Shown: piece by piece, positions 4,158 to 28,127 of the stretch
Numbering within the stretch: the first letter of the stretch is position 1
Layout of the letters: each line of letters starts with the position of its first letter
Assembly (NCBI GenBank): GCA_046563655.1
Contig: CM102284.1
Location: 3,038,001-3,102,000, forward strand
DNA length: 64,000 bases
Direction: 5' to 3'
Source: Yuukianura sp. NJ FZ-2021
Taxonomy: Eukaryota
Made by a program: the position numbers and the translations under genes
Notes under the pieces: model-generated
Databases searched by the model: none
Told to the model about the DNA's origin: nothing
The model's input: the letters and a program-made list of their open reading frames with translations, nothing else

Positions 4158-7113
4158 TTAATTGTTTTGATTCAAGTTCAGCAAAATTTTACAATAATTC
4201 AGAATTTCAGTTTGAAATGATATGTTACGAATAGCTGCAATGAATTTATAGTACTTTGTCCTCAACTTTTTTTTCAATTTCGTGTTTCGTCTTTGCTCAA
4301 ATCCAAACTGAAAAATCGCCAGCAAAACGCCAACACAAAATATAATGAAGATTGCTACCAAATTTGTGTTAAAAGAGAGTGGAAACCATTTTTTTGAAAA
4401 CTGTTCATCCCTGTTCATCCTCTCCCATCGTTTTCGTAAAGCTTTCAAACTCAGCAATTGCTGCCAATAATTAAACAAACCGGAGAAGTAGAGCGAACCA
4501 ATTCTGCTTTGATACGATTCGGTTTCCCATACCCACGGGACATCTTCCCGCGAAATTTCAATTGTGTAAGGAGACGAAAAAAGCGTCTCGGTTCCAAAAT
4601 ACACAAAAGGATTCGTGAGGCGACTCGCCATTTCCTGCAATGCTCTTCCTTTATCAACGAAAATTCGATTCTCACATGGCTGGGATGCGTTGAAATCATG
4701 TTCGCCTAATGAATACGGGAAACCGTGGGGCAAGGTCAAAGCATTCCCGAGTCTGCGCGCCAGATCTCTCTCTTCAGCATTATTGGACAGATTCTCCGCC
4801 GCATCTAAATGGTATTTGAATTGTGCTGAGTGAAGATGTCGCGTGTAATTCTTTGTATGCTGAGGATGAACCAATTTGTCAAATATCGCCCATGATTTCG
4901 CTTCCAGTGGCATTCCTGGGACGATAGCGTAGTTTTTCTCAAGGGCATCTCTAAACGTGGTTATTCTGTCAGGTTTCAATGGCTCCGTTGCTGTTAACAC
5001 TGATTTGTAAGTATTCGTCAAAATCAACGCAAAAACAAAGTATGGAATCATTAAGGTGCCTATTACTTTCAAGCGCAAAAGCTTGTCTGAAATTTGTGTC
5101 ATTTCTAGCAACGGAGCCATCAGAATGAAAACAATTGGGTCATGCTTCAAATTTTTCTTCTTGAAAAATAATTCAAAAATCCCCGCCAACAAAACGCAGC
5201 TACAAGCAACACCAATCCAGAGTTCTGGCTTGAACGGACTAACATAGAAGAGAAATGAAATTTTTCGTTTGTGCTGGTCGTCGCAAGCAATAAACCCGAA
5301 GGGTTCTTGCTCCATTTGCAAAATGTACATTGGCCATTGCTTCCAATCTTTCCAATCTTTTTGCAAAAATGCGGCACTGTCAAACGTTAAGAATCCCCTG
5401 TCTTGTATAAATGGGAAATGTTTTGATTTTTCACGAAGTTGTATATAATGAGAAATAAACTGTGAGCCACAGATTCGATAGGAGAGTAAATCGTTTCGAT
5501 GGTAAAATGAACCAAAAGTTGATCCGGTATAGTTGTGAATGTACGAAATCAAAAGTTCCGCTATGGAAATTTTTCCTTGTGCTACTGTTGCACTCAGGCT
5601 TAGCAATTGACGGAGGTTTGCTGCTGATGACCTCATGAATCCGCAGTGCCCTTTGACGTTGTTGATTCTCCAATACCCCAAAGTTTTGTTTCTGATGAGA
5701 CTCATGTGCCTGTCGTGAATGACTTTGAGTGACCCCCAACCAGTCAATTTCGTTCGTGACATTTCTTGGCGACCCATCGTAGGATATTCCATATCTGGAA
5801 AAAAATATTCGGCTTGAAGCTGTTGCGTAGCACCGAGTTGAATGATGAGGAACGGAAGGCGGCCAATGCTCCATAGAACGTGTATTTTTTCGTTCCTAAG
5901 GAAACTAACTTGTGTCCAATTCCATGTCACATGAATAAGGTGGGTGTGCAAGGAGTAGTGGGTCCTTTCAAAGATGGAATCTGTTTTGGCATTTTCGCGT
6001 CCTGAGTCACAAAAATTGAAAGCGGAAAATTACGACGCTGGATTATTAATTTTTAAATGTATTCCGCGCTTGGAGTTGTGTTTCAATAAACATGCGATGA
6101 TAGCACAAATGGTTGATGTCGATCGTAATTATATTGCACGCTCTGGTCTAACCCATCACAACCATTCAACTCTCCTAGCGCGTGGTAACCTTGAGCATGC
6201 ATGGGAATTATTTTTGATTTTAAAAAACATGATTATTGTAAACCCCCAAGGTGTCTTGACAACAGAAAACTTTTTCTTTAAAGCCCAATTTGTAACCAGT
6301 TTTCCTAGGCAACGATTCCTATCGATATCCAACGATAGGAGAAGTTTGTCGTAGAGCGAAAATAAAATAAATTTTTTAAAGAATCTTATGATTTCATATG
6401 ACATTAAAAGTTCTACGACAAACATTTCCTAGCAAACGTTACCTGGGAAAACCGCGTATAAATTGGGCTTATAGGCAATACGCTAGGCTAGGCTAGGCTC
6501 GTGTGTCATTTTGTTTAGTTGCCTTGAGAAAAAGCCTGTTACAGAAAAAGTATTTGCATTGATCAACCCCTTTACAACGCTAAATTTCCCTAATTTAAAT
6601 TCGCGCTAGAATTTCCGTTTCAGCTCACCTCGTAATGAGGAATTCAATTTCCCGCTTAACGAGTAAAAGAAGTTGCTGCTGACCTGTTGCGTAGAGTAGA
6701 AGTTTGGCCTGAATCCATGGATGACGATTAGCCGCTAAGTGACGAATGGGAGTGCTGGCTTGGACAAAAGCACATCCCACAGAGATTAGAGCCAAGCAAC
6801 GCATTTTACTCAGATAGTGTGATCCGAAGTTTGGCGCCGGTCGATTGTACATTCCCAATGCCGGAAACTTTTCCGATACTGTGTAATTCTTGACCAGAAC
6901 CACTGGAATTTCCAACGGGAACTCAACACGTTTTGCTATGTGAATGTGATCCACCGAAATTACTTCAATCCAACATTTTTCAAAGACTTTCAATACTGGA
7001 GCAATGCATAACTCCTCCGGTTCTGATCCCATTGACTGAAAGACTAAAAAGTACAAAATTCCGACAAAAGGAAGAAATCTAAAACCAAACTTTTTGGGGC
7101 TAACCACACCCAT
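4158..7113 (-). CDS. Divergent ionotropic receptor (IR/iGluR-like) chemoreceptor, 763 aa, 2 exons
   Basis: Exons 7113-6629 and 5964-4158 join in frame (AG|G). There is a hydrophobic N-terminus, an SPF..ELW pre-M1 segment, an M3-like 'LILTNTYKSVLT..P...ITTF.D' segment and an M4-like 'PLS...LVAIFIIFCVGVLLAIFQFGFE' segment. Confidence 0.65.
6281..6470. mobile_element. Degenerate MITE-like element in the IR-gene intron
   Basis: Left arm AAGCCCAATTTGTAACCAGTTTTCCTAGGCAACG matches the reverse complement of the right arm, AAGCCCAATTTATACGCGGTTTTCCCAGGTAACG. Confidence 0.7.
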
Positions 7114-7833
7114 TTTTTTTATCGTCTAACTTGGCACAACCTTAATAAGACTTTGAACTTCTGTTTGAAGGTGGGAAAACATTTTCCTTGATTAATTTAT
7201 GTCATATGTTCGTGACGAGAAACGAAAATGAAAAGAATGCTAAAGTTAAAAATAATTTCTTAAAAATAATTCAAATTTCTTTTTAACTTTTATAAGAACA
7301 AGGTCACTGGCTTGTTCGTCTTAAATTTTTGTGTCCGTTTGGTCCTTGACCACCACTTCCAAGGTCAATCCGATTTCCATGAATCTTGCAAGCCAAAAAC
7401 TCAGAGTGCATTTTGAATTGAGTATCGCTGCTATTGTTTGAAGTGGATTTCAGAGAATTATGTCCTCAGCCTTCCATCAGCAGGAATCCGATGAACTTAA
7501 TAAACAAAAACTGATTGTTTACACAATTTAGCAGTCAACTAAACTGTAACTGTGATTTTCCACGTAAACAAATGAAAGAATAACTAGTGAGCAGGAAATT
7601 AGCGAATGCGTCATCTCTCATTTGACACTCTCCAAATACAATCTTATCACCATCAAAGCTTACTTCATTTTAGCCTATATTTTGCTGCATTCTTCAGATT
7701 TTAGTTCAATTTGCAACAAGCAGACCATCGAACTCAACAAACACAACTCCAGTGCGTGACTGCCAAAAGCCAAAAATCAAGTGCTTCTTTCTATAAACCT
7801 CGTTTAAATTTCACTAAATCTTTTTAATCCAAA

Positions 7834-8705
7834 ATGGACTTTCTGAGGAAGATTCCATTACAACGACGGGCCAAAGTGGCCGGCATAGTTGACATGGTTA
7901 GTATCCAATTTTTCAAAGTGCTAAAAAATGAGTGCTTTTTTCAGTGTTTCAAAATTTCAAGAAAAAACAGAAAATTGCAATTGATTTTGAATACAATTTC
8001 AGATTCTATCGACAGCTGGAATTACTGCTGCTAGTTATGATATTTCATTTCTTTTGGATCCACTCCACTATGACGAGACAGCAGAATACAAACGTAAGGT
8101 TTCTAGAAATGCTTTCTTGAGTTGTTAAAATTTAAAATAGCAAGTTCGAATTTTCACAAATTTTTCTGGTAAATTTTAGGAACAAATACGTTAATCAGCT
8201 TGTACATAACACTTGGAATCTCGATAATCAGATTTATAATGGGATTCATCCTGTGGATTGGAGCTGAAAAGGTAAATTAAAAATTTCGTAATAGTAAATT
8301 TAATTAGTTTAAGCGTGAGTTCCAGACTTTTCAATTACTTAAATGTTCGCTGAATAATTTATTAGTATTAGCCAGCGTTCTTTCGTTTCAAAAATTTTAA
8401 AACGCAATCTGCTTTTTTAAAGAAACTTTATAAACTTAAGTTTTTAATTTTGGATTTTGCTTCTCTTTTTTTAGAGAAACGATCGCCTTTGTACCCAGTG
8501 GCTGTACGCTAGCGTTCCATTATGGTGTTTTCATCTCCTCACATTCATTTTAGACATGTGCTTTGGAACTTTTGTTCTGGGGTCAACCATTGTCAGTGCA
8601 CTGACTACAGCCATTCGAGTCTTTGTCATGGTCAGTGTCTACAGATTCATCAAGGAAGTCCAGTCAGACGAACTTCTGCGCAGAAACTCCGAAAGTAGTG
8701 CATAA
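7834..8705 (+). CDS. Small tetraspan membrane protein (LAPTM/DUF4728-like), 158 aa, 4 exons
   Basis: Exons 7834-7896, 8003-8093, 8180-8271 and 8475-8705 are all GT-AG and in frame. There are four hydrophobic segments, a 'ILWIGAEKRNDRLCTQWL' segment and a C-terminal 'VYRFIKEV'. Confidence 0.75.
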
Positions 8706-8848
8706 ACACTTGCAATTAAACTTTTGTATTTCCAGTTTCTAACTTATCTTCTAAGCATATTTATCAACATGTAAACATACTATAAAACATATAAACATTA
8801 AAATAAATAAATAGCTATAATTTTGTACCGACAAAAAAATTCGAAAAC

Positions 8849-11325
8849 TCAGCTCTCATCAATTCTCGTGCCCCAATTTGGTCTCTCTTGAGCTTCATCA
8901 ATTCCAGTTACGTATTGTCGGCACGGTGCATTTTCTTCTGCGTCTGCGCTATAGTCGATTCGCAGGGTCTTATAGTCATGTGGAAGGAAACTCCAGAATG
9001 GTGTTCCAGAACCAATCAAAAGCGCGTCTTCAACTGTTTCTGGAAGGCTCTGGCCCAATGTCTCCGGCAAAAAAATTGTCGCCAACATACCCAATAATGA
9101 CAAAGCAGCAAACACGTAATATGGGAAGCAGATACGTGTTTTACCCTGTCACAAAAAAAACGCAACACTTCCTCAAAAGTTCATAGGTTGTTTTTTAATA
9201 GAAAATAGCACCTACCAGGTACAAAATGAGTGGCACTAGAACTGAGGTGAGTCCAATTGACGCAGACATGAGTCCAACGCCGTTTGAACGAAGCGTCGTT
9301 GGAAATAACTCTACCGCTTGAAGTGGAACTATGATAGAAGAAACTGCCATTGCACATCTGCAAATAAACAAAAACAAAAAATAAAATTGTCTTGCATTAT
9401 GAACCAAAACAAATGACATACTTTCACACAAAAAAAAACAACGAGAGTTTTTCAGTTTTGAAGAGCCAAAACAATGGCAATAACAAACTAATCCTTACTT
9501 TGCTAAAACTAGGGTAGGAATTAGAATAGCAGATACTCGATTCGCCAATGTCACGTAAGCTACACATGCAAATGCCACTGCGCCGACTCCAAACGCAAGC
9601 ACTTGGGTCCAGCGTCTTCCAGCATTGTCGGCCAGTAAGTAGCCAATCCAGCCTACGGGAATCTCAATGGCAGCAAGCACCAGGAAATTGTAGAACTGGT
9701 TGCCAGGGAGACTCGTTACTCCGTAGTTAATTCCATACAGGAGCATGTAGGTAATGGACGTAGTGAAACAGATTAGGACAGTGTTTTTGGTCAGACGCCA
9801 TTTTGAGAAGAGGTCGAGAAAGGCATGTCCTGATGGATTCATGTTTTTCTTCTGATCCAATTTCACTTTCATCTTCATCAGAATTCCTAGAAGGTCACAA
9901 GAATCAAAAATGAAATCTGTTTTGTTGGCTTTGGCCATTTTGAGCAAAACGTTTTCTGCTGCTGTCATTTCTCCTCGAATGAGTAGCCATCGTGGAGATT
10001 CCAACAGAAATCCAAAACTGAGAAAAGTGAAGAGGAGGGGCAATGGTGTCAGGAGTCCAAAGTTCAGCCAATGGCGTGTGACCATGGCCAGAATTGGCAA
10101 AATGCATAGTCCAAGCACCCTGTTATTGCAAGTCCAGGAGAAATTGAAATTGAAATTGAAAGTTCAAGTGTATGCACACTCTACAAAATTTTTTAATTAC
10201 CATGTAACGAACCGGCAGCTAGAAACCCACGAACGCATGTCTGAAAGAGATTCAAATAAAACAAATGATTTTTATTTAAATTAAATTCCAACTCAGATTA
10301 TTTTGGTTACTTTCATAATTTACCTTTACCGACAGACTCCATTGCAAGTGAAATGCTACAAAACATAATGGCTGGATATGCTGTGCCCATAACAAATTGC
10401 AAAACGAGGAAGAGATGGAAATGGCTTGTAACAAAGAGACTTGCAGTTTTGAAGAAAGTCATTATGAATGTTGCTGCAAAGAAAGTCGGTTTTCTCCCAA
10501 ACCTTCGAATAAAAATGGAATAAAAATGAAAATGGACTTACAATTTAAGCGAACGGACAGTAAAACTTGGGTTTTTTTGAAATAATGCAATTGAAAGCAT
10601 GTATTTTTTTTTTTTGTAAGAAATTCGGACCTGTCTCCAGCCCATCCAATGACAAGAGCGCCGGGACCCGATCCGAGGTTTGCGGATATAAGGGCCTTGG
10701 TAACGTAGTCTTCCTTGTTGCAAACCCAGTCCAAGTCCGTGGGAATAGTTGCGTCAAAATTGGTTTTGTCGTAATCCCACCCTGCGACGCATGGGATTTC
10801 CGCATGGTTCAAGGGTGACACATACATGAGACACTGGCTAAGTCTTTGACTTCCATCCGAACCAACTTCCCTGAAATCGAGATATATTTAACATTATCAT
10901 ACTATTGAGTAAGAAAATGTAGAAAAAATTTTTGAAATTATTTTAGTATACTTTATAGTATTTTGTTAACACTGAACTCTACATACTTTGGTATCCAGAT
11001 ATCTCTGGCAGCAGAGTCACTGATGGGCAAGTGACACCAATGGTCAGGTTCAGAGAAAAGGAAAATTGTGTTGCCATAGGCAACTGGCAGCAGGAAGAGG
11101 AAGGGACATAGGAATCCGTAGAGGAGCCACTTCTGGTATTTCCCATTTGACCCCACTAGTTCCAGTAGGTCATCGAACTCTTCCACGTCAACGCTACTCT
11201 CCGTCGCTACTCCCAAGTTCTTAGTGAAATTTAAAATACAAGCATTTAAAATATATTTTGTATTTTTTAGAATTGCTCCTTACGTCTTGGAATGTCTGAT
11301 AGTCGAATGCCTTGTTTTGAAACAT
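8849..11325 (-). CDS. SLC22 organic cation/carnitine transporter (MFS), multi-exon
   Basis: Motifs include 'FDDLLELVGSNGKYQ', 'PDHWC', 'CVAGWDYD..TIPTDLDWVC', 'ESPRWLL', 'ADNAGRR', 'ELFPTTLR' and 'LPETLGQSLPETVED'. The first coding exon 11325-11284 splices in frame to 11219. Confidence 0.92.
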
Positions 11326-12806
11326 TCCACTACAGTGGATATACTATAGTGGGTCACAGTCACGATAGACGATACCAAAATGAGTCTTTTGGCCATTCTC
11401 TGGGTTAAATCTCGATGGAAAACAAGTTTTGAAATGAAACAGAAGAAACAGGAAAATGACTAGAATGGATGCTGAGATTCGCTAAAGGAGGCAGGTTTAA
11501 ACATCGGACGCCAAACCGGTTTCATAGACAGACCGACAGCTACAAAGAGCCTTTACTTAACCTTTACTTAAGTTCTTGTATTTCCTATAAAACATAAACA
11601 TAACGTGCAACTGGAATTCGGAAGCGTTCTGGAATCGGCTGTCGGTAGGTGATTTAGCAACAACTGAATTAAATATGAAATAAAACAAATCACGCACTAA
11701 ATTCTTTTTAGTGTGAAATTCACCCACATGTTAAAAGAATGAGCAGTGTGGGAAGTGGGATAAAGTATGTGCAATGTGTACATCCTTGTCCTACCGCTCA
11801 TCTTTGTACATTGTAACATACTAGTAGGTATATGTTGGAGGAGGGTTCAAGGCCAAAACAGTTTAATCTTAAGATACAACTTGACAAAGTTGGTATTCAT
11901 AATTTGTCGGAAAACGTTTATCGTCGCCGCAACATAAAGCGCAAAGTGCCTGCGTTTATTAATTGAGGCTAATTCTTTTCAAAATTAGAAGAAAAGTATT
12001 TTTAAAATAAAATAACGCATTAGTATGGTGTCTTTAGTTGACGGGTTAAAAGAAGAGTATGAGTGACGCTGACTCTACAATTTGCAAAGGAAAATTTTAG
12101 AATAATTGATAAGATGAAGCACATAAGGAAGAATAAAACTAAGAAATTACTGATAAAGTATTCAAAGTGACATTTGAATTTTTGCAATACTAGTCTTAAC
12201 GCCTTCTCACACCCATAGTGTGATAATCTTGACAGATTTGTGCATGACTTCCTCCAGTTGCGCAGAACGTTGTACTATTTGAGTGATTTGCTGCTTATCG
12301 TTTAATTACGTCATTGCAAAAATGTTGCAAGAACTTACTATAAAATTGAAGGACAAATTTGATTTCTTATGGAGAGTTCATCTTTCAGTAAAAGACTTAA
12401 CAAGTAGTTGTTCATGCGCTGTCAAAAGCAGTAAGTTTTTTTTTAACTTTCTTTTTCATTGTTTATTTTTCCGTACTTTCAGATTTACTTTACTTACTTC
12501 TAAAAATGTAGCCTTTTGTTCAAACTAATTTTCCAATTCTTCATGTTTTGTTTGAAACAGGATTAACCTCTTGTTTTAAGCAAAGCGTTTAAAGCAGGAT
12601 GTTTAAAACGTCCGTTTAAAACAAGGAGACCCTGATTGTTATTAAGCGTACAAAAGTTCTTCGACTGATCGAGACCTTAGTTTAAATTTGTATTTGCAGT
12701 TAAATTTTGCATATTTCGGATATTTTCTAATGTCTTTCTTCAACTTTTTTTTTTTTTGATAGAATTGCTTCATGAATTGTGTTTTCTCTTTTATTAGAAT
12801 CTTGAA

Positions 12807-13247
12807 ATGCCTACGGAAGTTCTCATTCAAGAAGCCACTACTGCCCAACAAATTGCGCATTGTTGGCCAGCACTAACTGGACTTAATTATACCGTGCTTG
12901 AAAGCGAATTTGTTGATAGAGTGCAAAGGCAGCAGAGGGAGGATCATTACCGACTTTTCTACATTAAAGGACAAGGTGGCAATGTTGAAGCGGCCATGGG
13001 AATCAAAATTCAAAACTCACTTTTCACTGGGAGAACGCTGTACATTGATGACCTTTGTACTGTTGCTACTAGTCAACGGAAAGGCTATGGGGGTCAACTC
13101 TTGAAATTTGCTGACGATCTAGCTAAACTTGAAAATTGTGATACTATGACGCTTGATAGTGGCTACCATCGACACAACGCACATAGACTGTATTTGAACA
13201 ACGGATTTACTTTATTTAGCCACCATTTCTCCAAAACAATGAAATAA
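12807..13247 (+). CDS. GNAT-family N-acetyltransferase, coding region intronless, bacterial-like
   Basis: 146-aa single ORF with 'LYIDDL', acetyl-CoA motif A 'QRKGYG' and C-terminal 'LDSGYHRHNAHRLYLNNGF....HHF'. Confidence 0.88.
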   Translation: MPTEVLIQEATTAQQIAHCWPALTGLNYTVLESEFVDRVQRQQREDHYRLFYIKGQGGNVEAAMGIKIQNSLFTGRTLYIDDLCTVATSQRKGYGGQLLKFADDLAKLENCDTMTLDSGYHRHNAHRLYLNNGFTLFSHHFSKTMK

Positions 13248-14316
13248 AATTTGAGACTAAAAATTATATTAGTTGCAAGCGTATAAATAACGTTCAATTT
13301 TTCAAAATGCTGAGTTGAGTTGCTTTTTTTTTTGTTGAAGAAAGTTATTCATGTTGAGCAGAATTCTGTTAAGAATTTTGAGCAGAACATGCAACTTTCT
13401 CTCCGTATTCGCGAATCGCGACTCTAAAAAAAAACCAGTCCCGCCGTACGCACAAACGTTTTTCTTGCCATTGCAGTACAAAACTTAATAGTTACGAAAT
13501 TCTAATGTAATTAAAAGTCACTTGTTTGACAAACTTCAAATTACACTTATTTAGTTCGGCCGAAATGCTGCAATATTTTCAATTATACTGTTGCATATTA
13601 TTACATTGAATTTGTTTGAGTTGGAATTTTTGTGCGTGTTGTTGTAGCTTTATGTGCAATTAGAATCTAATTGTTCCCCCAATTGAAAGTTAATCAAATT
13701 GAAGAACCGATGTTAAACAACAATTTGTAAAAACGTTACGTTTGTAAAAAAACGTATTTACTTACATAAGTTCATAATATGATTTCCTAATAATCAGTTC
13801 GGATCCAATAATATTTTGTTATTTCACAACAATGGACTTCCGTACGAAAAAACTTTGTTACTAATTCCTCATTATCGTACGTTGGAATTTGGTAATGCTT
13901 TGACAATTAATCGTGCTGGGGAATCTGCATTTGTTCTTGTCAAGGAAAAGATCATCTCTTCTGGGCTTAAAAGCTCCATTTCTATTCAATCTCCTTCCAG
14001 GGACTCACGTGGACTCACGTTCACCTACTTTCGGTGTCTTTTGAAAACTTGAGGAATCTTTGTTTCGTTAATAATCGATTAGTCCATTAGCTTGAAATTA
14101 GATTCCAGTGTCGCAGTCACTGTAATTTGTACACTGTAGTTTAGTTGGTAGCGGCAGTTGCAGTCTTGCAGTTGATGGACCAAAACTGGATTGATTGGAT
14201 TTGGATACAGTGACAAATGAAACAGCTGATCGAAAAGACAACACAAGTGGGTAAGTTCTTTACTTATTGATGATTGGATTATTGATTTTATAGCAATAAC
14301 TAATGTCTAGTTTGAG

Positions 14317-16224
14317 ATGGTTCAACTAAACGATCAACCAGAGTCAGAGTCTAAGGACATGGAGGGTGACACACAGCCGATAAGTTACGCATATGCTGAT
14401 GCAGAAGAAGAGTAAGTGAATCCAAATTATAATGTTAATTTAAGAATGAATTTTGGAAGTTGTGTTAACGAATAGTTGTACATTGTACGTTAGCTATGTG
14501 GCTTTCTTTTAGAACGCAAGAGGTCAAGGTATTCTCCGATGTTAACCTGCAGATAACCAATAACGCAGTATTGAAACCGAATCTCGAGAGAAATGGAACT
14601 GAACTTAATGATAAAGAAGATGACATCGAAATTCTTGAAACTCCACCGAAGCCACCACCTATTATGGTAGATCTGGAAGACGGAAGCGACGCGGAGGGTG
14701 GACATCGCGATGACATTGCTAATCCAGCGTCACCGGCATTATCCGCTGATCTACTGTCCCAGACGGTTCGTGTCAATTTAGGAACAACTCGTTTTTATTC
14801 CGTTATTCATCTTATTAGTTCAATTATTACTTGGTTTATGTTTTGTAGAATTCGGACGATGAAGCCGACACGCAAATGATGATTACGCAAACGTTTTTAA
14901 TACCTGAGACTATTTTGGAGGATTCCAATGATACTTTGATGGACCAAACTCGCCCTAGCAGCTCAACTCGAAGCGCAGACTCTGATTACGAGTCCCAGCC
15001 CGAAACCAGCAAGGTTTCAACTCTTTTGAAACTTTGCTATGAAGTAGTGAAAGCCAACATTGAACGTTTTGAATTTATCCGTCCCGACGATGATGAAACC
15101 TCCGAGAATGGTTCCCGCAAGACATGGCGTGACGTTTACAATGCAAGTTAACTGTTTGATTGCATTTATTCGATTTCGAAATTCAAATTTCAAAATTGAA
15201 ACAAACTTAATTTGCTTTCAGAGACTTGTAGCTGATGCTAACTTCAACACGAATGTTCCTCGCGACTCGGCCACCACTGAATTGGTAAGTAAGAATTTAT
15301 AAATGTTAATGTTGGAACATTTCGTGCACTGATCCTCATTTTTTTTTAAATAAAAGTCCACGGTGCCGGCCGGACCATGTCGAAACCTAAGTCAACCGTC
15401 CACTTCCAGTAGTTCTACTGCTACTATTACATGCCAAGGGGATACTACCGATTCGAATGGACACCGTAGTGACATCAACGCTGACCGGCCTACCACTTCC
15501 ACGTCAACTAGGAATGCTCGTGGAAGGGCACCCACTCAGCCCACCAAGGATATTCTAGTAATTACACTTCCCTGTGATTCTCCTCCACCTTCTCCTCCGC
15601 CATGCGCACCTTACACTGCAATTGGACGTTCAATTTCCAACGAAGTAGTTACATTCCAGGAGAACTGTTACCGGGAAATTCGAGAATGTATCAACAAGCT
15701 GTGTAAGGGAACTCATCAGGTCCCATCTGACAATGTAAGCTTTATTTTTTGTAATCCAAACTGAAACGAAAAATGAATGGAACGACGAAAGAATGTTTGC
15801 TGACTTTTAGACTCTAACGATGCTCTCAATCGAAATGCCTGTAACCTGGACCGAGATGGGAAAAATTCCAGGGATGTCGGAGCGTACCCGTTTCATTTAT
15901 TGGCCCGCCGTTTTAAAAATCACCAAGCGATATCGAAGCGAGAAGTTAAAGTTCTACAAGACTTGCCACTTTCCGACGACGCTTCAACAAGCCAAGGACT
16001 TGTGCTCAACCGAGACAAGTAACGGACGCAACAGAAAAAGAACCAAGGCTAAAAGAAATCGTGCTGGCAAAGGAAAACAAGCTGAAGAAGCGATGAGTAT
16101 TGTCACCTCAGACTCAGAGGATGAGTCGGCTCGTAGCGATTCTCCGGCGGTGACATCGGCATCGCCTCCAGCGAAACGCACCAGACGAGCCAGAGCATCC
16201 AAACCAACCGCATCAGCAGACTGA
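14317..16224 (+). CDS. Uncharacterised ~498-aa largely disordered protein with a BC-box/Elongin-A-like motif, an HRDC-like domain and a basic NLS-like tail
   Basis: Exons 14317-14411, 14513-14765, 14849-15142, 15222-15284, 15357-15734 and 15811-16224 give one open frame, using one GC-AG intron. The start codon is uncertain. Confidence 0.65.
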
Positions 16225-16588
16225 GATTCTTCCAGTTCTAATTAATTTGTATTTACCGCGACTTTGCCGCCGCGATTTTCGCATTCATATCAAACAACAA
16301 TCAGTTGTTTTATTTTGATACTTCTTCACCTTATGACGCTGAAGCAATATTTTTGAAACTACGGTATAATCTCGCACTTGATTGGGAGGTAGTACTGTAT
16401 TAAATTAATTTTGAGAACAAGTTAAACTCATTCTGTTTTTTCCTTGCCTTCTTGACATGATCACTGGAGTTAAGAAGATTTAAAAATTTAAGTTGCGGTT
16501 ACGTTTAGTAAAACTGTTGGCTTCGTCAGACGAAGCAATCTTTTGAAAAATGATTAACTTTGTGGGTCTTAAAATTTTCGCCCAGTCA

Positions 16589-17666
16589 TCATTTTCTTTC
16601 CTCACTTTCAGCTGGAGAAATTCGGCCAGCTTCTACCGAATAGTCGTCAGGAGAAGGATCGACTCCACCGCTCTGTTTATAATGTCGTCGGATTTTGGCA
16701 CTGGTAGCTTCTCCACTGGCTATTTCTCCGCTCTGCGGTTCAAGTTCTAAAACGTTCAAAATATTTCCCTAAAGAAACATGGTTGGCAATTCAATATACT
16801 GAACTAACTGAAGCCACTTCTCACCCAAACTCGTTGTTGCTTCAGCAGGTTCTGCCGGAGTTGTATTCGCTGGAGCTTTGTTGGCGTCACACTTCTTTGG
16901 CCGCTCCACAAAGTACTGGAGGTAGCCCCATGCTGGACTGTCTGCAGGAACAATTCCAGCCGTGAAATCAGCGAATTCTGCCACCGTTGGAAATTGACAC
17001 TGAGTCTAAAAAACAATAAAGGTTAATCAGCATTAATTCACCCAGCATCAACAAAGTTTACTTACGTTGTACGGATCGTGTCCAATACATTTGCATGCTC
17101 TCCTGTCAAAATCGCAAACTCCTGTTCGTGCTCCATGGTTGCATTGACAATCCACCACGCAAAGCTCACGGAATTTGCCTGGAAATTGAACAAAATCGTT
17201 TTCATTTTTTAAACTGGAAGATTTTGCTTAACTAAACAACACATCTATCTGGTCTGTGCTTACCCAAAGGTGCAATACAATGAAGTGATTTCTCTACTCG
17301 TGCTGAAATGGAATTTTCAACATTTCAAACATCAGTTTTAAACATCCACGACAAATCGAACTTTGCAATTTTTACTTACCTCCTTGGAATCTTCCGCAAT
17401 AGCAGTTGAAATCTCCTCTACCCGGCGGTCCGCACATCCCATCAGCAGCGCCATGTTGATAGATGCAGTCATCAGAGCAAGGAAAGAACGTTTGATTGTT
17501 CTCTTCACTGGCCGGACACAAGAAGCTTGGATACCCACCGAAAGCAACTGAAAATTAAAAACAAAGTTAACAATAAAGCTACTTCTAATATGTTAACTGC
17601 TAAGTATTAAATGAACTTACCGTGGGAAAAGGAAAGCAGAACGATTATAACCAGTGGAGTGTCCAT
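16589..17666 (-). CDS. Secreted cysteine-rich protein with two tandem CSαβ (defensin/scorpion-toxin-like) domains and an acidic tail, 234 aa, 6 exons
   Basis: Exons 17666-17621, 17547-17380, 17302-17264, 17178-17066, 17005-16825 and 16746-16589 are all GT-AG with consistent phases. A signal-peptide-like MDTPLVIIVLLSFSHVAFG is followed by two C..CxxxC..GxC..CxC units. Confidence 0.8.
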
Positions 17667-18185
17667 TGCTGCCAAAAACTTAAAAATCCCTGAGAAACGT
17701 TTGAATACTCCGAGGATAGACGACCCACCTCCATTTTTATAATTTCTGAGAACATAAGAAAAAAACGGATAACAAGAAATCAGTCCACTAACGAACCCGA
17801 ATACGCAGATACGTTGACCTCATGAAATCATGGCATGGCGGTGACATTCGATAAATCCCCAAAACTAAATTCTAAATGCTGGGATTCCAGAATATCTAAA
17901 GAGCGTTAATGTTAACTAATTAACCACTTTTCAAAAAGATTAGCAGCAAGACTTAAGTAAAAAGTTTTTTTTTTGCGGTTAAAGTTATAACATTTGCAGG
18001 ATTAGTAGATCTCTTGAAATAACCAATAGGGAACCACATAAGATTTGAAAATTTATTAAAAGACAAATCACATTCAAGACAGCGTAAAATGAACTTTGAA
18101 CGCTATTGTCTTGGTGGTACCGTATTTCACGGCGTATAGGTCGCATTCGCAGCCAAATATAATTTTTTGGGTATTAATTATAACT

Positions 18186-25540: not shown

Positions 25541-28005
25541 TTAGAATGACGACAATTTGTGCTGGACACGATTCAGCTCCTCGTATACTTTGGCTCCTGC
25601 CTTTACATCACGTGCTTCGGGTGACAAATCAGGGTGGAACTGAGGATCTTGCAAGTACAACTGCTTGGTTATGACCGGTAGTCCTGCCATTCGTTGCTCC
25701 AACGCTAAAAGCACTCCCAATGAGTAATCGCCTTCAACACTGAAAATTAGCAAAATCGCACCTTTTAGTAGTTGTTTTAGAAAACACTACCGCAATCATT
25801 ATATAAATATAACAAACATTTAAGATTCATTTACGTGTCCAAGTAGCAGAAGGTAGTAGGGGGAGACGGCACACTTTGGTTCACATTCTGCGCGATGTAC
25901 GCTCGGATCTGGCTTTTTAGGAGACGATAGGCTCTCATGCGATTCTCAGTTGGTGCTTTCAACGTTTCATAAAACGTAAACTGAGCGTCGGGTAAAGTGA
26001 CTTCCAACAAGGTCAGACGATTACTTAGTCCTTTACCAGTATTCGCAAGGTGTCCGTAATGACTTTCGATAAGAATCAGTAGACGATCAGGGACAAAAGC
26101 AGTAGGCCAAGGAAGTACTGGTTTTCTGTTCAAAGGAGGAGGTCGAGTACTGGTCATGCTGGAACAAGTGGAGCTGGTATTGCTGAGCAATTTGGAGTTG
26201 ACCCTTCGGCGTGAGAGGTTCAACTTAACATAGCCCAAACCCACCAGAAACGTTCCAGGAGGGACAGCTAAAGAGTGAACATAAGAGTCCAATTGGGAGC
26301 CTGACATGACGACAAGGATCAAACAAAATTTACTTTTTCTCAGCAAATTTCAAAAATCGACAATTTATCGGAGGATTGAAAAATTGTAAACAGCTTATAG
26401 TTTCGTATTTGTAACAATTCACGATTCTGGTCGTCAAGGCATTGGAAGATTCAATTTAAAACATCAATTGGGTCACATCACAATTACTTTTATTCCAAAA
26501 GAGAAAAAAAATGAGCATTAGATTGGATTTTTAAAAAAGGAAATTCTGAGTAATATAACTTATGGTCCACAAAATCGTAACCAATCGAAGGAAAAAGTAG
26601 TCAAACCGAACGCCTCATGTTGTCGTCTGGCAACATTCGTCCCGACTCTACTAAACCGTCTGGTCTTGCTAGTCGAAAGCATAAATTCTCACCGTCCAAT
26701 TCAAATACATATTCTCCAGGAACCAGCATGCTAGAGTCGTGGTCAATTAGAAAATTGCTCAAGCTCGGAAGTAGCAACGTATCACTCGTACTATGAGTTT
26801 GACGAATAGCTGACATTTGAGGTGGTTCTCTACGTCGGGTTTCTTCAGATAGAGATATTACTGCCTGATCCGCATGTCGATCTGCAAGGGCCGCGGAACT
26901 AACCTGGGAAATACTATCGTCATTCCGGCCCGGTAGCGCATTGTGAGTTCCTTGAGGTTTGCGTCTTAACTTTGCGGAACTCAACCTTTTATTTCTTTGA
27001 TGTCCGGATCCAGAGCCAGGGCCAGGAAGTTTAGATTCAATTCGTCCATCAGGCGGCGGCGAGGTGTTTACCGCGGGGGCTGTACTTGACTCTACCAACA
27101 TCAATTTTTTCCCAATTTTGCCGTAGGTAAATCCCATCCGTTTCAATATACGACGAAAACTTGTTCGGGATCCAACAAAATTTATACTCTGCCTTGTAGC
27201 CGCCAAGATGGACGGAATATACGTTGGTATTCTGTTTTGCAAACCGCAAAAAGTTACATTATTTGTCCCATTTCACATATACGAATTGATACAAGAAACG
27301 TGTGAGATTTGTTTACCGTTGTAAGTTCATTTGATGTATGATATTTCGAATAGCACTTTCGTCATCCTCGCTTACGGTATCCAGAATTCTCTTCTTGACT
27401 TTTCTCTTCAGTGCTGCTTGTTCCAGGATGCCACGCTTCCAATTGTTCCTCAGCTTTTTAATAACTGAAGCGGATACATTGAGCACTCGAGCGGCCTTTT
27501 CCTGCGGAGTCCTAATACGGCTCTCTAAATAAGTGTCATTTTGGTGATTTTGTAAAAAATGTAGTACATTGAGTATCAACTTCTGTGATTGCTCGTTGAA
27601 GATTTGTCCAGCATACTGGAAAGGTAGTGGTGCAGAATCATTCCTTCTTTGACGTTTCTTCAAAGTAGTATCAGAAAGTGTTCCTAGTGAACTTTCTGGA
27701 TCAATCATCACGGCATTAGTCTCAATTACATTTTCAATCACTTCGTCCACATGTTGGAAAATCAACATCATATCCTGCTCGCTACGAACAACGTCATGTT
27801 TCTGTTGCAGGCGTGAATTAGGGAAAGCTACGTTAGTGTCGTTGCAGCTGGAGCCGATCACAACTTCCTGAATTTCATGAAAATTAACGTTGGAGAGGAA
27901 TTCGTTACTGTCAATAACAACGGGGAAATATTGACGCGAGGAATCAGCAGTCAGCGACGGTTCTGCCTCTGTCCCTCTCTCTGCTGTGGTCACTTCCGTT
28001 TCCAT
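25541..28005 (-). CDS. Transposase-derived protein: IS630/Tc1-type DNA-binding region without DDE, fused to a degenerate C48/Ulp1-like domain, ~657 aa, 4 exons
   Basis: Exons 28005-27317, 27231-26612, 26300-25835 and 25739-25541 are in frame. The HTH-like region reads 'AARVLNVSASVI..IRNIIH..PT..FVGSRTSFRRILKRMGFTY'. The donor at 26611 (GTTCGG) is weak. Confidence 0.6.
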
Positions 28006-28127
28006 CAGTATCACTCCTTCTTCTACTTATTTAGAAAATCCTGGCGACTGTTCAAAAATGATTTATAAAAATTCGAGAAGCCAAACCAACTCCGAGTCAG
28101 CTGATCATTTTTTTAACAATAATAGTC

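Follow-up and report, generated by a model that had tools for sequence, protein, structure and literature searches.

GNAT N-acetyltransferases have often been transferred from bacteria to diverse eukaryotes that share their niche, according to Noon & Baum 2016 (PMC4828791). A bioRxiv preprint (10.64898/2026.03.13.711553) describes a GNAT of ticks and Mesostigmata that came from bacteria and was domesticated, with a single coding exon, a 5′-untranslated region (5′-UTR) exon, and host-like codon use. Here we analyzed a 64-kb stretch of DNA from Yuukianura sp. NJ FZ-2021 (contig CM102284.1; hereafter the window, numbered from its first nucleotide), in which an uninterrupted 146-aa frame encodes a GNAT protein. 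It is probably a functional gene of bacterial ancestry, long resident in the genome of an animal, most probably an arthropod, and the architecture proposed for it is that of the tick gene as the preprint presents it. The tick GNAT is reported there as not found in Acariformes, while the family of the window gene includes the acariform Panonychus; for this reason the tick gene, compared by description only, probably represents a different GNAT that was acquired in an event of its own. The cyst-nematode GLAND1 GNATs, unlike the window case, are secreted effectors of actinomycete affinity, and the main text on them (PMC4828791) mentions neither arthropods nor mites. The available text of the Archegozetes genome preprint discusses transfers without mention of a GNAT, and that of PMC8601627 deals with a different gene, common to nematodes, Folsomia, and Bradysia. 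A full-text literature search returned no paper on this GNAT family in sciarids, spider mites, or springtails; supplementary gene lists may include the family.

Proteins with the same subfamily motifs (Y-I-D-D-L, L-D-S-G-Y, A-H-R-L-Y, and H-H-F) are found in animal genomes as YhdJ-like N-acetyltransferases: XP_037036888.1 (Bradysia coprophila), KAG4080312.1 (B. odoriphaga), KAJ6647160.1 (Pseudolycoriella hygida), XP_053200399.1 (Panonychus citri), and CAL8112387.1 (Orchesella dallaii). They are about 140–165 aa long and 42–52% identical to the window protein. All keep an L-R-P-H motif that the window protein has lost, and none is close enough for certain orthology. Bacterial stand-alone GNATs (Myroides odoratimimus, Rapidithrix thailandica, and metagenome genes) share the length, motifs, fold, and single domain at 30–48% identity. 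Unlike the window gene, they lie in gene-dense DNA with varied neighbors, with G + C contents at third codon positions (GC3) of 0.18 to 0.83 and codon use that is not host-like. Solved GNATs (3t9y, DpA 8a9n/8a9o, AAC(6′)-Iy 2vbq, GNA1, and SSAT) have the same fold as the window protein (TM 0.75–0.83), but at merely 12–20% identity, so no shared substrate can be deduced from them.

The coding region and one motif within it are as follows.

12807 to 13247, forward strand: coding region of the GNAT N-acetyltransferase, ATG to TAA with the stop included, a single exon (open reading frame list, Pfam PF00583, AlphaFold2, and family alignment).
13074 to 13091, forward strand: codons of Q90-R-K-G93-Y-G95, the putative acetyl-CoA pyrophosphate-binding motif (translation; G93 nearly invariant in the alignment).

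The family has one copy in the window; tblastn with the window protein returned the gene itself and a chance match (E 6.8). Pfam PF00583 Acetyltransf_1 was matched at 41.7 bits (cut-off 20.7, E 1.6e-10) and PF13508 Acetyltransf_7 at 31.2 bits (cut-off 27). An NCBIfam scan of the protein reached no equivalog cut-off. PhnO aminoalkylphosphonate N-acetyltransferase (NF007530) was rejected at 30.5 bits against a cut-off of 142, and RimI and the AAC(6′) aminoglycoside acetyltransferases (TIGR01575, NF000021, NF000158) at 18.3 against 86.4, 14.4 against 310, and 12.7 against 270 bits, respectively. The AlphaFold2 model, built on a 97-sequence family alignment, has the mixed α/β GNAT fold with a mean predicted local distance difference test score of 95.1 and a predicted TM score of 0.89. 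Foldseek against the PDB gave 460 matches at E ≤ 0.001; all listed rows were GNATs (TM 0.72–0.83, identity 12–20%), among them the polyamine acetyltransferase DpA (TM 0.83), AAC(6′)-Iy (TM 0.82), GNA1, and SSAT. By sequence, the closest solved chain was 3t9y, an uncharacterised protein of Staphylococcus aureus (E 1.1e-07; 2.9e-12 with the family profile), whereas the solved animal enzymes SSAT2 (2bei) and NAA30 (7mx2) gave E 0.64 and 0.89. An animal AANAT, SSAT, or NAA-type identity was rejected on these values, and the preliminary description of the locus had rightly called the protein a bacterial-type stand-alone GNAT and not an animal NAT. The signature quoted there, from L-Y-I-D-D-L through to H-H-F, is the true family consensus in the 97-sequence alignment.

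GNATs are marked by a Q/R-x-x-G-x-G/A loop that binds the acetyl-CoA pyrophosphate and by a conserved tyrosine in the next helix. The Q90-R-K-G93-Y-G95 loop and Y129 are both present in the window protein, and G93 and Y129 are nearly invariant across the family alignment. Of the family’s 23 nearly invariant columns, the window protein retains 21; R67 is replaced conservatively by Lys, and R27, part of the L-R-P-H motif in the loop between helix 1 and helix 2, by Asn. Eight relatives (P0012, P0079, P0102, P0104, P0127, P0138, P0157, and P0199) were observed to carry a low-complexity insert of 10–45 residues at one common position, in the hairpin that links the two long strands. One of the carriers is Orchesella, and some carriers look eukaryotic by composition.

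GNAT activity of the window protein is very likely. The enzyme would use the Q90-x-x-G93-x-G95 loop to bind acetyl-CoA and would acetylate a small molecule at its amino group, Tyr129 being the likely general acid. The acceptor pocket would be lined by the conserved D81, D82, D117, R122, H126, R127, H139, and H140, and this Arg/His/Asp lining suggests as acceptor a polar amine of small size that is perhaps anionic. The pocket of the window protein may have changed. As a tentative guess, the protein would N-acetylate a small polar amine in a protective capacity, the detoxifying role raised in the preliminary description being less likely than not. Among 16 longer family proteins the fusion partners were PALP (twice), tandem GNATs, DinB_2, a GDSL lipase, a methyltransferase, NUDIX, HIRAN, and a piece of an adenylyltransferase. 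Some of these partners would suit the modification of antibiotics or xenobiotics, or the chemistry of amino acids, and none defines a substrate. In P0063 and P0166, from a cluster of four metagenome proteins, the GNAT stands behind a pyridoxal-phosphate-dependent PALP domain resembling serine/threonine ammonia-lyase, a fusion that is a possible hint at an amino-acid-related substrate.

Five sequencing runs cover the stretch and were compared with it over 8000–18000. Four derive from one sample of organism A, and the fifth, X5, from another organism, sample, and study; their labeling as DNA is a guess, and the evidence consists of contigs of short data, not single long reads. An improbable rival is that the locus is an integrated but silent relic, bacterial-origin DNA that stays open by chance or through recent arrival and is neither expressed nor used. 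The loss of R27 from a nearly invariant motif would fit a relic, as would one haplotype with a His18-to-Leu change (a run X1 contig has T against A at position 12859). Against a relic stand the open 146-codon frame and the 21 retained residues. The ORF has a GC3 of 0.354, against 0.326–0.48 in ten host coding pieces, and its relative synonymous codon usage correlates with that of host exons at r 0.65, against −0.40 to 0.45 for eight homologues. This host-like codon use argues that the gene has been resident for long, and without constraint its frame would have decayed in that time. In the X5 contig that holds the ORF, 12 of 804 bases differ from the window, whereas adjoining contigs differ at 38 of 1,458 and 55 of 1,510 bases. 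A further variant, A to G at 13082, is synonymous (Lys92) and common to X1 and X5.

The direction of transfer is supported by the distribution of the family and not by a resolved tree. When 1.84 billion representative proteins were scanned exhaustively with HMMER, 1270 matched at E ≤ 1e-3 and 364 at E ≤ 1e-10; no match reached E ≤ 1e-30. A word-indexed search of 5.8 billion proteins, a collection in which the window’s own protein is absent, gave 53 matches with a top identity of 53%. In the metagenome scan 389 of 407 pattern stretches encoded relatives, and 80 loci were kept. Gene-dense DNA surrounded 76 of these 80, with 0.64–1.00 of their length in stop-to-stop ORFs of at least 100 aa, against 0.42 in the window; among the 48 loci of at least 3 kb the single low one was L008 (0.45). 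Flanks were scanned at 22 loci (21 gene-dense metagenome loci and the Myroides genome locus L001), where 32 of 44 flanking proteins had Pfam families, all ordinary bacterial ones, including GntR-aminotransferase regulators, Mur ligase, a type IX secretion system (T9SS) sorting domain, and pyrroloquinoline quinone (PQQ) dehydrogenase. Neighbors recurred at most twice (GntR-aminotransferase, PhzF, CxxCxxCC, and Polysacc_synt). Genome sampling covered one phylum, that of Myroides, in which 10 of 201 sampled genomes had a match at E ≤ 1e-25, the best being 44.6% identical to the window protein. The closest Atlas clusters were 93–100% Bacteria, and the named bacteria among the cluster look-ups were a Phycisphaerae metagenome-assembled genome and Rapidithrix. 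Judged from these sequence counts, the family is a patchy accessory gene of bacteria, and overwhelmingly bacterial.

Organism names were looked up for 30 clusters, about a quarter of the database proteins being named. Orchesella dallaii, a springtail, was 42% identical; of the three sciarid flies, Pseudolycoriella hygida was 52% identical over a 102-aa fragment, and Bradysia coprophila and B. odoriphaga, both in the 90% cluster of P0007, 45%; Panonychus citri is the spider mite carrier. The top match, at 53%, was L004 (identical to P0001), a 1,252-nt metagenome contig with AT-rich flanks and without another long ORF. L008, at 45%, lies on a 7.7-kb contig of low coding density with a 667-aa leucine-rich-repeat ORF and Gly/His-rich ORFs, a context that appears eukaryote-like. 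In the window, L004, and L008 alike, the gene is one open frame without a coding intron. Two further loci, L050 and L074, were considered as eukaryotic on an ORF coverage of 0.39 and rejected, as they are 1.1-kb contigs placed beside the gene-dense L010 in the tree. L004 and L008 are differing copies, both on eukaryote-like contigs, from records with the same metagenome prefix. They fall in separate regions of the tree, so two lineages of the gene may coexist in a single eukaryote community or a single genome. The alien index was near zero (best bacterial-context match 3.7e-30, Bradysia cluster 6.1e-30) and is uninformative, because the only animal matches are themselves transfer candidates.

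For the phylogeny, 262 rows were kept after dropping sequences of more than 200 or fewer than 100 residues, short-chain dehydrogenase (SDR) matches, extra cluster members, and four locus-ORF duplicates. From these rows FastTree recovered a clade of 18 (SH-like 98) that united the window with all named arthropods and L004. The clade was not upheld by the mixture-model tree, and we do not rely on it. The latter (IQ-TREE, LG+C20) was computed on 102 rows, comprising the 63-row neighborhood, the L008 group, named bacteria, 22 random rows, and three added named proteins; about 160 rows lay outside this set, the bootstrap was not fully settled, and most rows were without a taxon name. Supported groups in this tree were Sciaridae (100/99), Orchesella with two unnamed proteins (100/98), and L004 with P0002 (100/98). 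The grouping of Sciaridae with Orchesella was weak (80/65), and that of the window protein with the YhdJ-like arthropod proteins was unsettled. An approximately unbiased (AU) test holding together 13 arthropod and eukaryote-context rows, a group picked after the first tree, gave a cost of 21.3 log-likelihood units and a p-AU of 0.175, so that a single arthropod/eukaryote-context clade is neither shown nor rejected by the sequences.

A vertically inherited, ancient eukaryotic or arthropod GNAT, lost in most animals and looking bacterial through deep conservation, is slightly less probable still than a silent relic. The closest relatives are indeed eukaryote-context or arthropod genes, the 13-row clade survives the AU test, and the FastTree clade would agree with such descent. 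Vertical inheritance is opposed by the carriers themselves, since the named animals are just five arthropod species in three distant lineages, with no other animal among the matches. Bacterial-context homologues (44–48% identical) are also as similar to the window protein as the named arthropod ones (42–47% over the full length), coding introns are absent from the window, L004, and L008, and the solved animal GNATs are all distant. A gene of bacterial ancestry could have reached its carriers in a single old transfer followed by many losses, in several transfers whose donors were related, or by spread from arthropod to arthropod. The preliminary description of a horizontal acquisition stands in that a bacterial-type gene is integrated; the acquisition is not a private one, the nearest relatives being other eukaryote-context and arthropod genes.

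The signals around the ORF and the polymorphic segment upstream of it are listed below.

12431 to 12436, forward strand: GTAAGT, candidate splice donor (pattern scan).
12445 to 12686, no strand assigned: 242-bp insertion/deletion polymorphism with a multi-copy repeat core at 12583–12634 (run contigs).
12781 to 12797, forward strand: acceptor-like pyrimidine tract with AG (read from the sequence; use as an acceptor is putative).
13243 to 13248, forward strand: AATAAA, possible polyadenylation signal overlapping the TAA stop codon at 13245–13247.

The tract and AG that had been pointed out before the ATG are real: the AG lies at 12796–12797, 9 nt 5′ of the ATG, and 13 of the 15 preceding bases are pyrimidines. 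The TAG at 12795–12797 is an in-frame stop, so the reading frame has no upstream extension unless it is spliced. Under the rule used for the background count (a 15-nt tract plus YAG), the window has 0.48 equally strong sites per kb per strand, and 16 of 950 ATGs (1.7%) have such a site within 35 nt upstream. The site before the GNAT ATG is unusual; it is not proof of splicing. Between 10900 and 12807 the donor pattern GT(A/G)AGT occurs once, as the GTAAGT at 12431, which would delimit a candidate 5′-UTR intron of 367 nt (12431–12797). Because the frame that ends at 12430 contains stops and lacks a usable ATG, an exon upstream of the intron could only be non-coding; a coding N-terminal extension through such an exon was ruled out by these stops. 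The gene may be expressed as a transcript with a non-coding first exon spliced 12431/12797. Acceptor-like tracts also precede two relatives, in L004 (11 of 15 pyrimidines plus AG, 4 nt 5′ of its ATG) and in L008 (10 of 15, about 30 nt 5′ of its ATG); this parallel with the window was drawn post hoc and is suggestive. The AATAAA reported at the stop codon is real as well. With 61 copies of the hexamer on the forward strand of the window it is not unusual and is weak alone; the first AATAAA or ATTAAA 3′ of 13248 lies at 13510.

Within the candidate intron, some X1 and X2 contigs connect 12444 directly to 12687 and omit the 242-bp segment, so the insert is polymorphic. Its 52-bp core (12583–12634) has loose ends at 12583 and 12634 in four of four runs, which marks it as a dispersed repeat. 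The insert was considered as a miniature inverted-repeat transposable element; a terminal inverted repeat was looked for and none was found.

As far as the contigs show, the GNAT gene is physically part of an animal chromosome. Two host genes flank it.

9495 to 10887, reverse strand: upstream host gene, sugar/organic-ion transporter-like exons (ORF pieces 9495–10163, Pfam Sugar_tr E 6.4e-08, and 10462–10887).
14496 to 16224, forward strand: downstream host gene, three long ORF pieces of low complexity, rich in Ser/Pro/Thr (ORF list; Pfam-negative; covered by a 3,062-nt X5 contig).

In X5, an 804-nt contig spans 12707–13519, that is, the entire ORF and both flanks. It overlaps a 1,458-nt contig covering 11265–12736, and the 3,062-nt contig corresponds to 13965–17013. 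Eight flank ORFs of 55–81 aa matched no family, save one chance-level match (E 0.089). The metazoan content of the window comprises FAS exons, a short-chain dehydrogenase, ARGLU1, SAP130, and BRD7/9-type domains. The FAS exons are of animal type (E 1.1e-63 to pig FAS in the PDB search); in the Atlas the FAS exon adjoins bacterial and fungal polyketide synthase (PKS) clusters. The SDR exon had distant matches only, the top named animal being Copidosoma at 44%. The neighbors of the GNAT gene are exon-split, with the N and C domains of the FAS ketoacyl-synthase in different ORF pieces and the transporter in separate exons, and the preliminary observation of an intronless coding region among exon-split neighbors is borne out by the ORF list. 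Bacterial contamination or a chimeric assembly join has nothing in its favor beyond the bacterial affinity of the protein family and is very improbable, as the host exons lie 1.9 kb and 1.2 kb from the ORF within one 64-kb stretch, the ORF recurs together with the same flanks in contigs that a different study obtained from a second organism, these flanks are AT-rich (GC 0.35 and 0.34) without a bacterial ORF, codon use is host-like, and the top identity among the 5.8 billion proteins is 53%. Contamination had already been discounted in the preliminary description, and the host domains on both sides now agree with that.

Several points weigh against a long-resident functional gene of bacterial ancestry. 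The maximum-likelihood phylogeny that had earlier been proposed as a check was run, and its backbone collapses: the window protein joins a polytomy that also contains rows of bacterial context and of eukaryote context. The tree does not settle its placement relative to bacteria, and no individual branches show it nested within them. Few matches are named, and most close relatives (P0002, P0003, P0056, P0057, and P0178) are without known origin. The tracts in L004 and L008 are weak, and 9 of 81 other loci also reach 10 of 15 pyrimidines. The bacterial neighborhoods and fusions are heterogeneous and point to no substrate. Lastly, the loss of the nearly invariant L-R-P-H Arg could reflect relaxed constraint, not a new specificity.

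Elsewhere in the window, a 623-aa frame at 4158–6029 on the reverse strand matched no Pfam family, and none of 7,744 candidates qualified as a homologue at E ≤ 0.001. Adjoining it, a 166-aa ORF at 6625–7125 on the reverse strand was also Pfam-negative; together they possibly form a lineage-specific gene. A 237-aa ORF at 27313–28026 on the reverse strand gave a sub-threshold RWP-RK match (20.6 against 29.3 bits) that is probably chance. An Rfam scan of the window returned no RNA family.

As a single gene, the window GNAT is an ordinary example of a documented phenomenon. Most likely it stems from an old transfer and was domesticated, a type of event on record from mites, springtails, fungus gnats, ticks, and nematodes. 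A bolder proposal, which we consider doubtful, is that the same GNAT subfamily was captured several times independently, or passed between soil- and plant-associated arthropods (sciarid flies, spider mites, springtails, and the window host), because it neutralizes one microbial or plant amine toxin; the loss of L-R-P-H would then mark a remodelled substrate loop with new specificity. Bacterial genes domesticated by animals are rare enough for every well-supported case to be informative about the functions that repay retention. This one small acetyltransferase family occurs in small arthropod-like animals of at least four unrelated groups, living on decaying matter, fungi, or plants. Its substrate, if found, could name a chemical pressure common to the animals that carry it.

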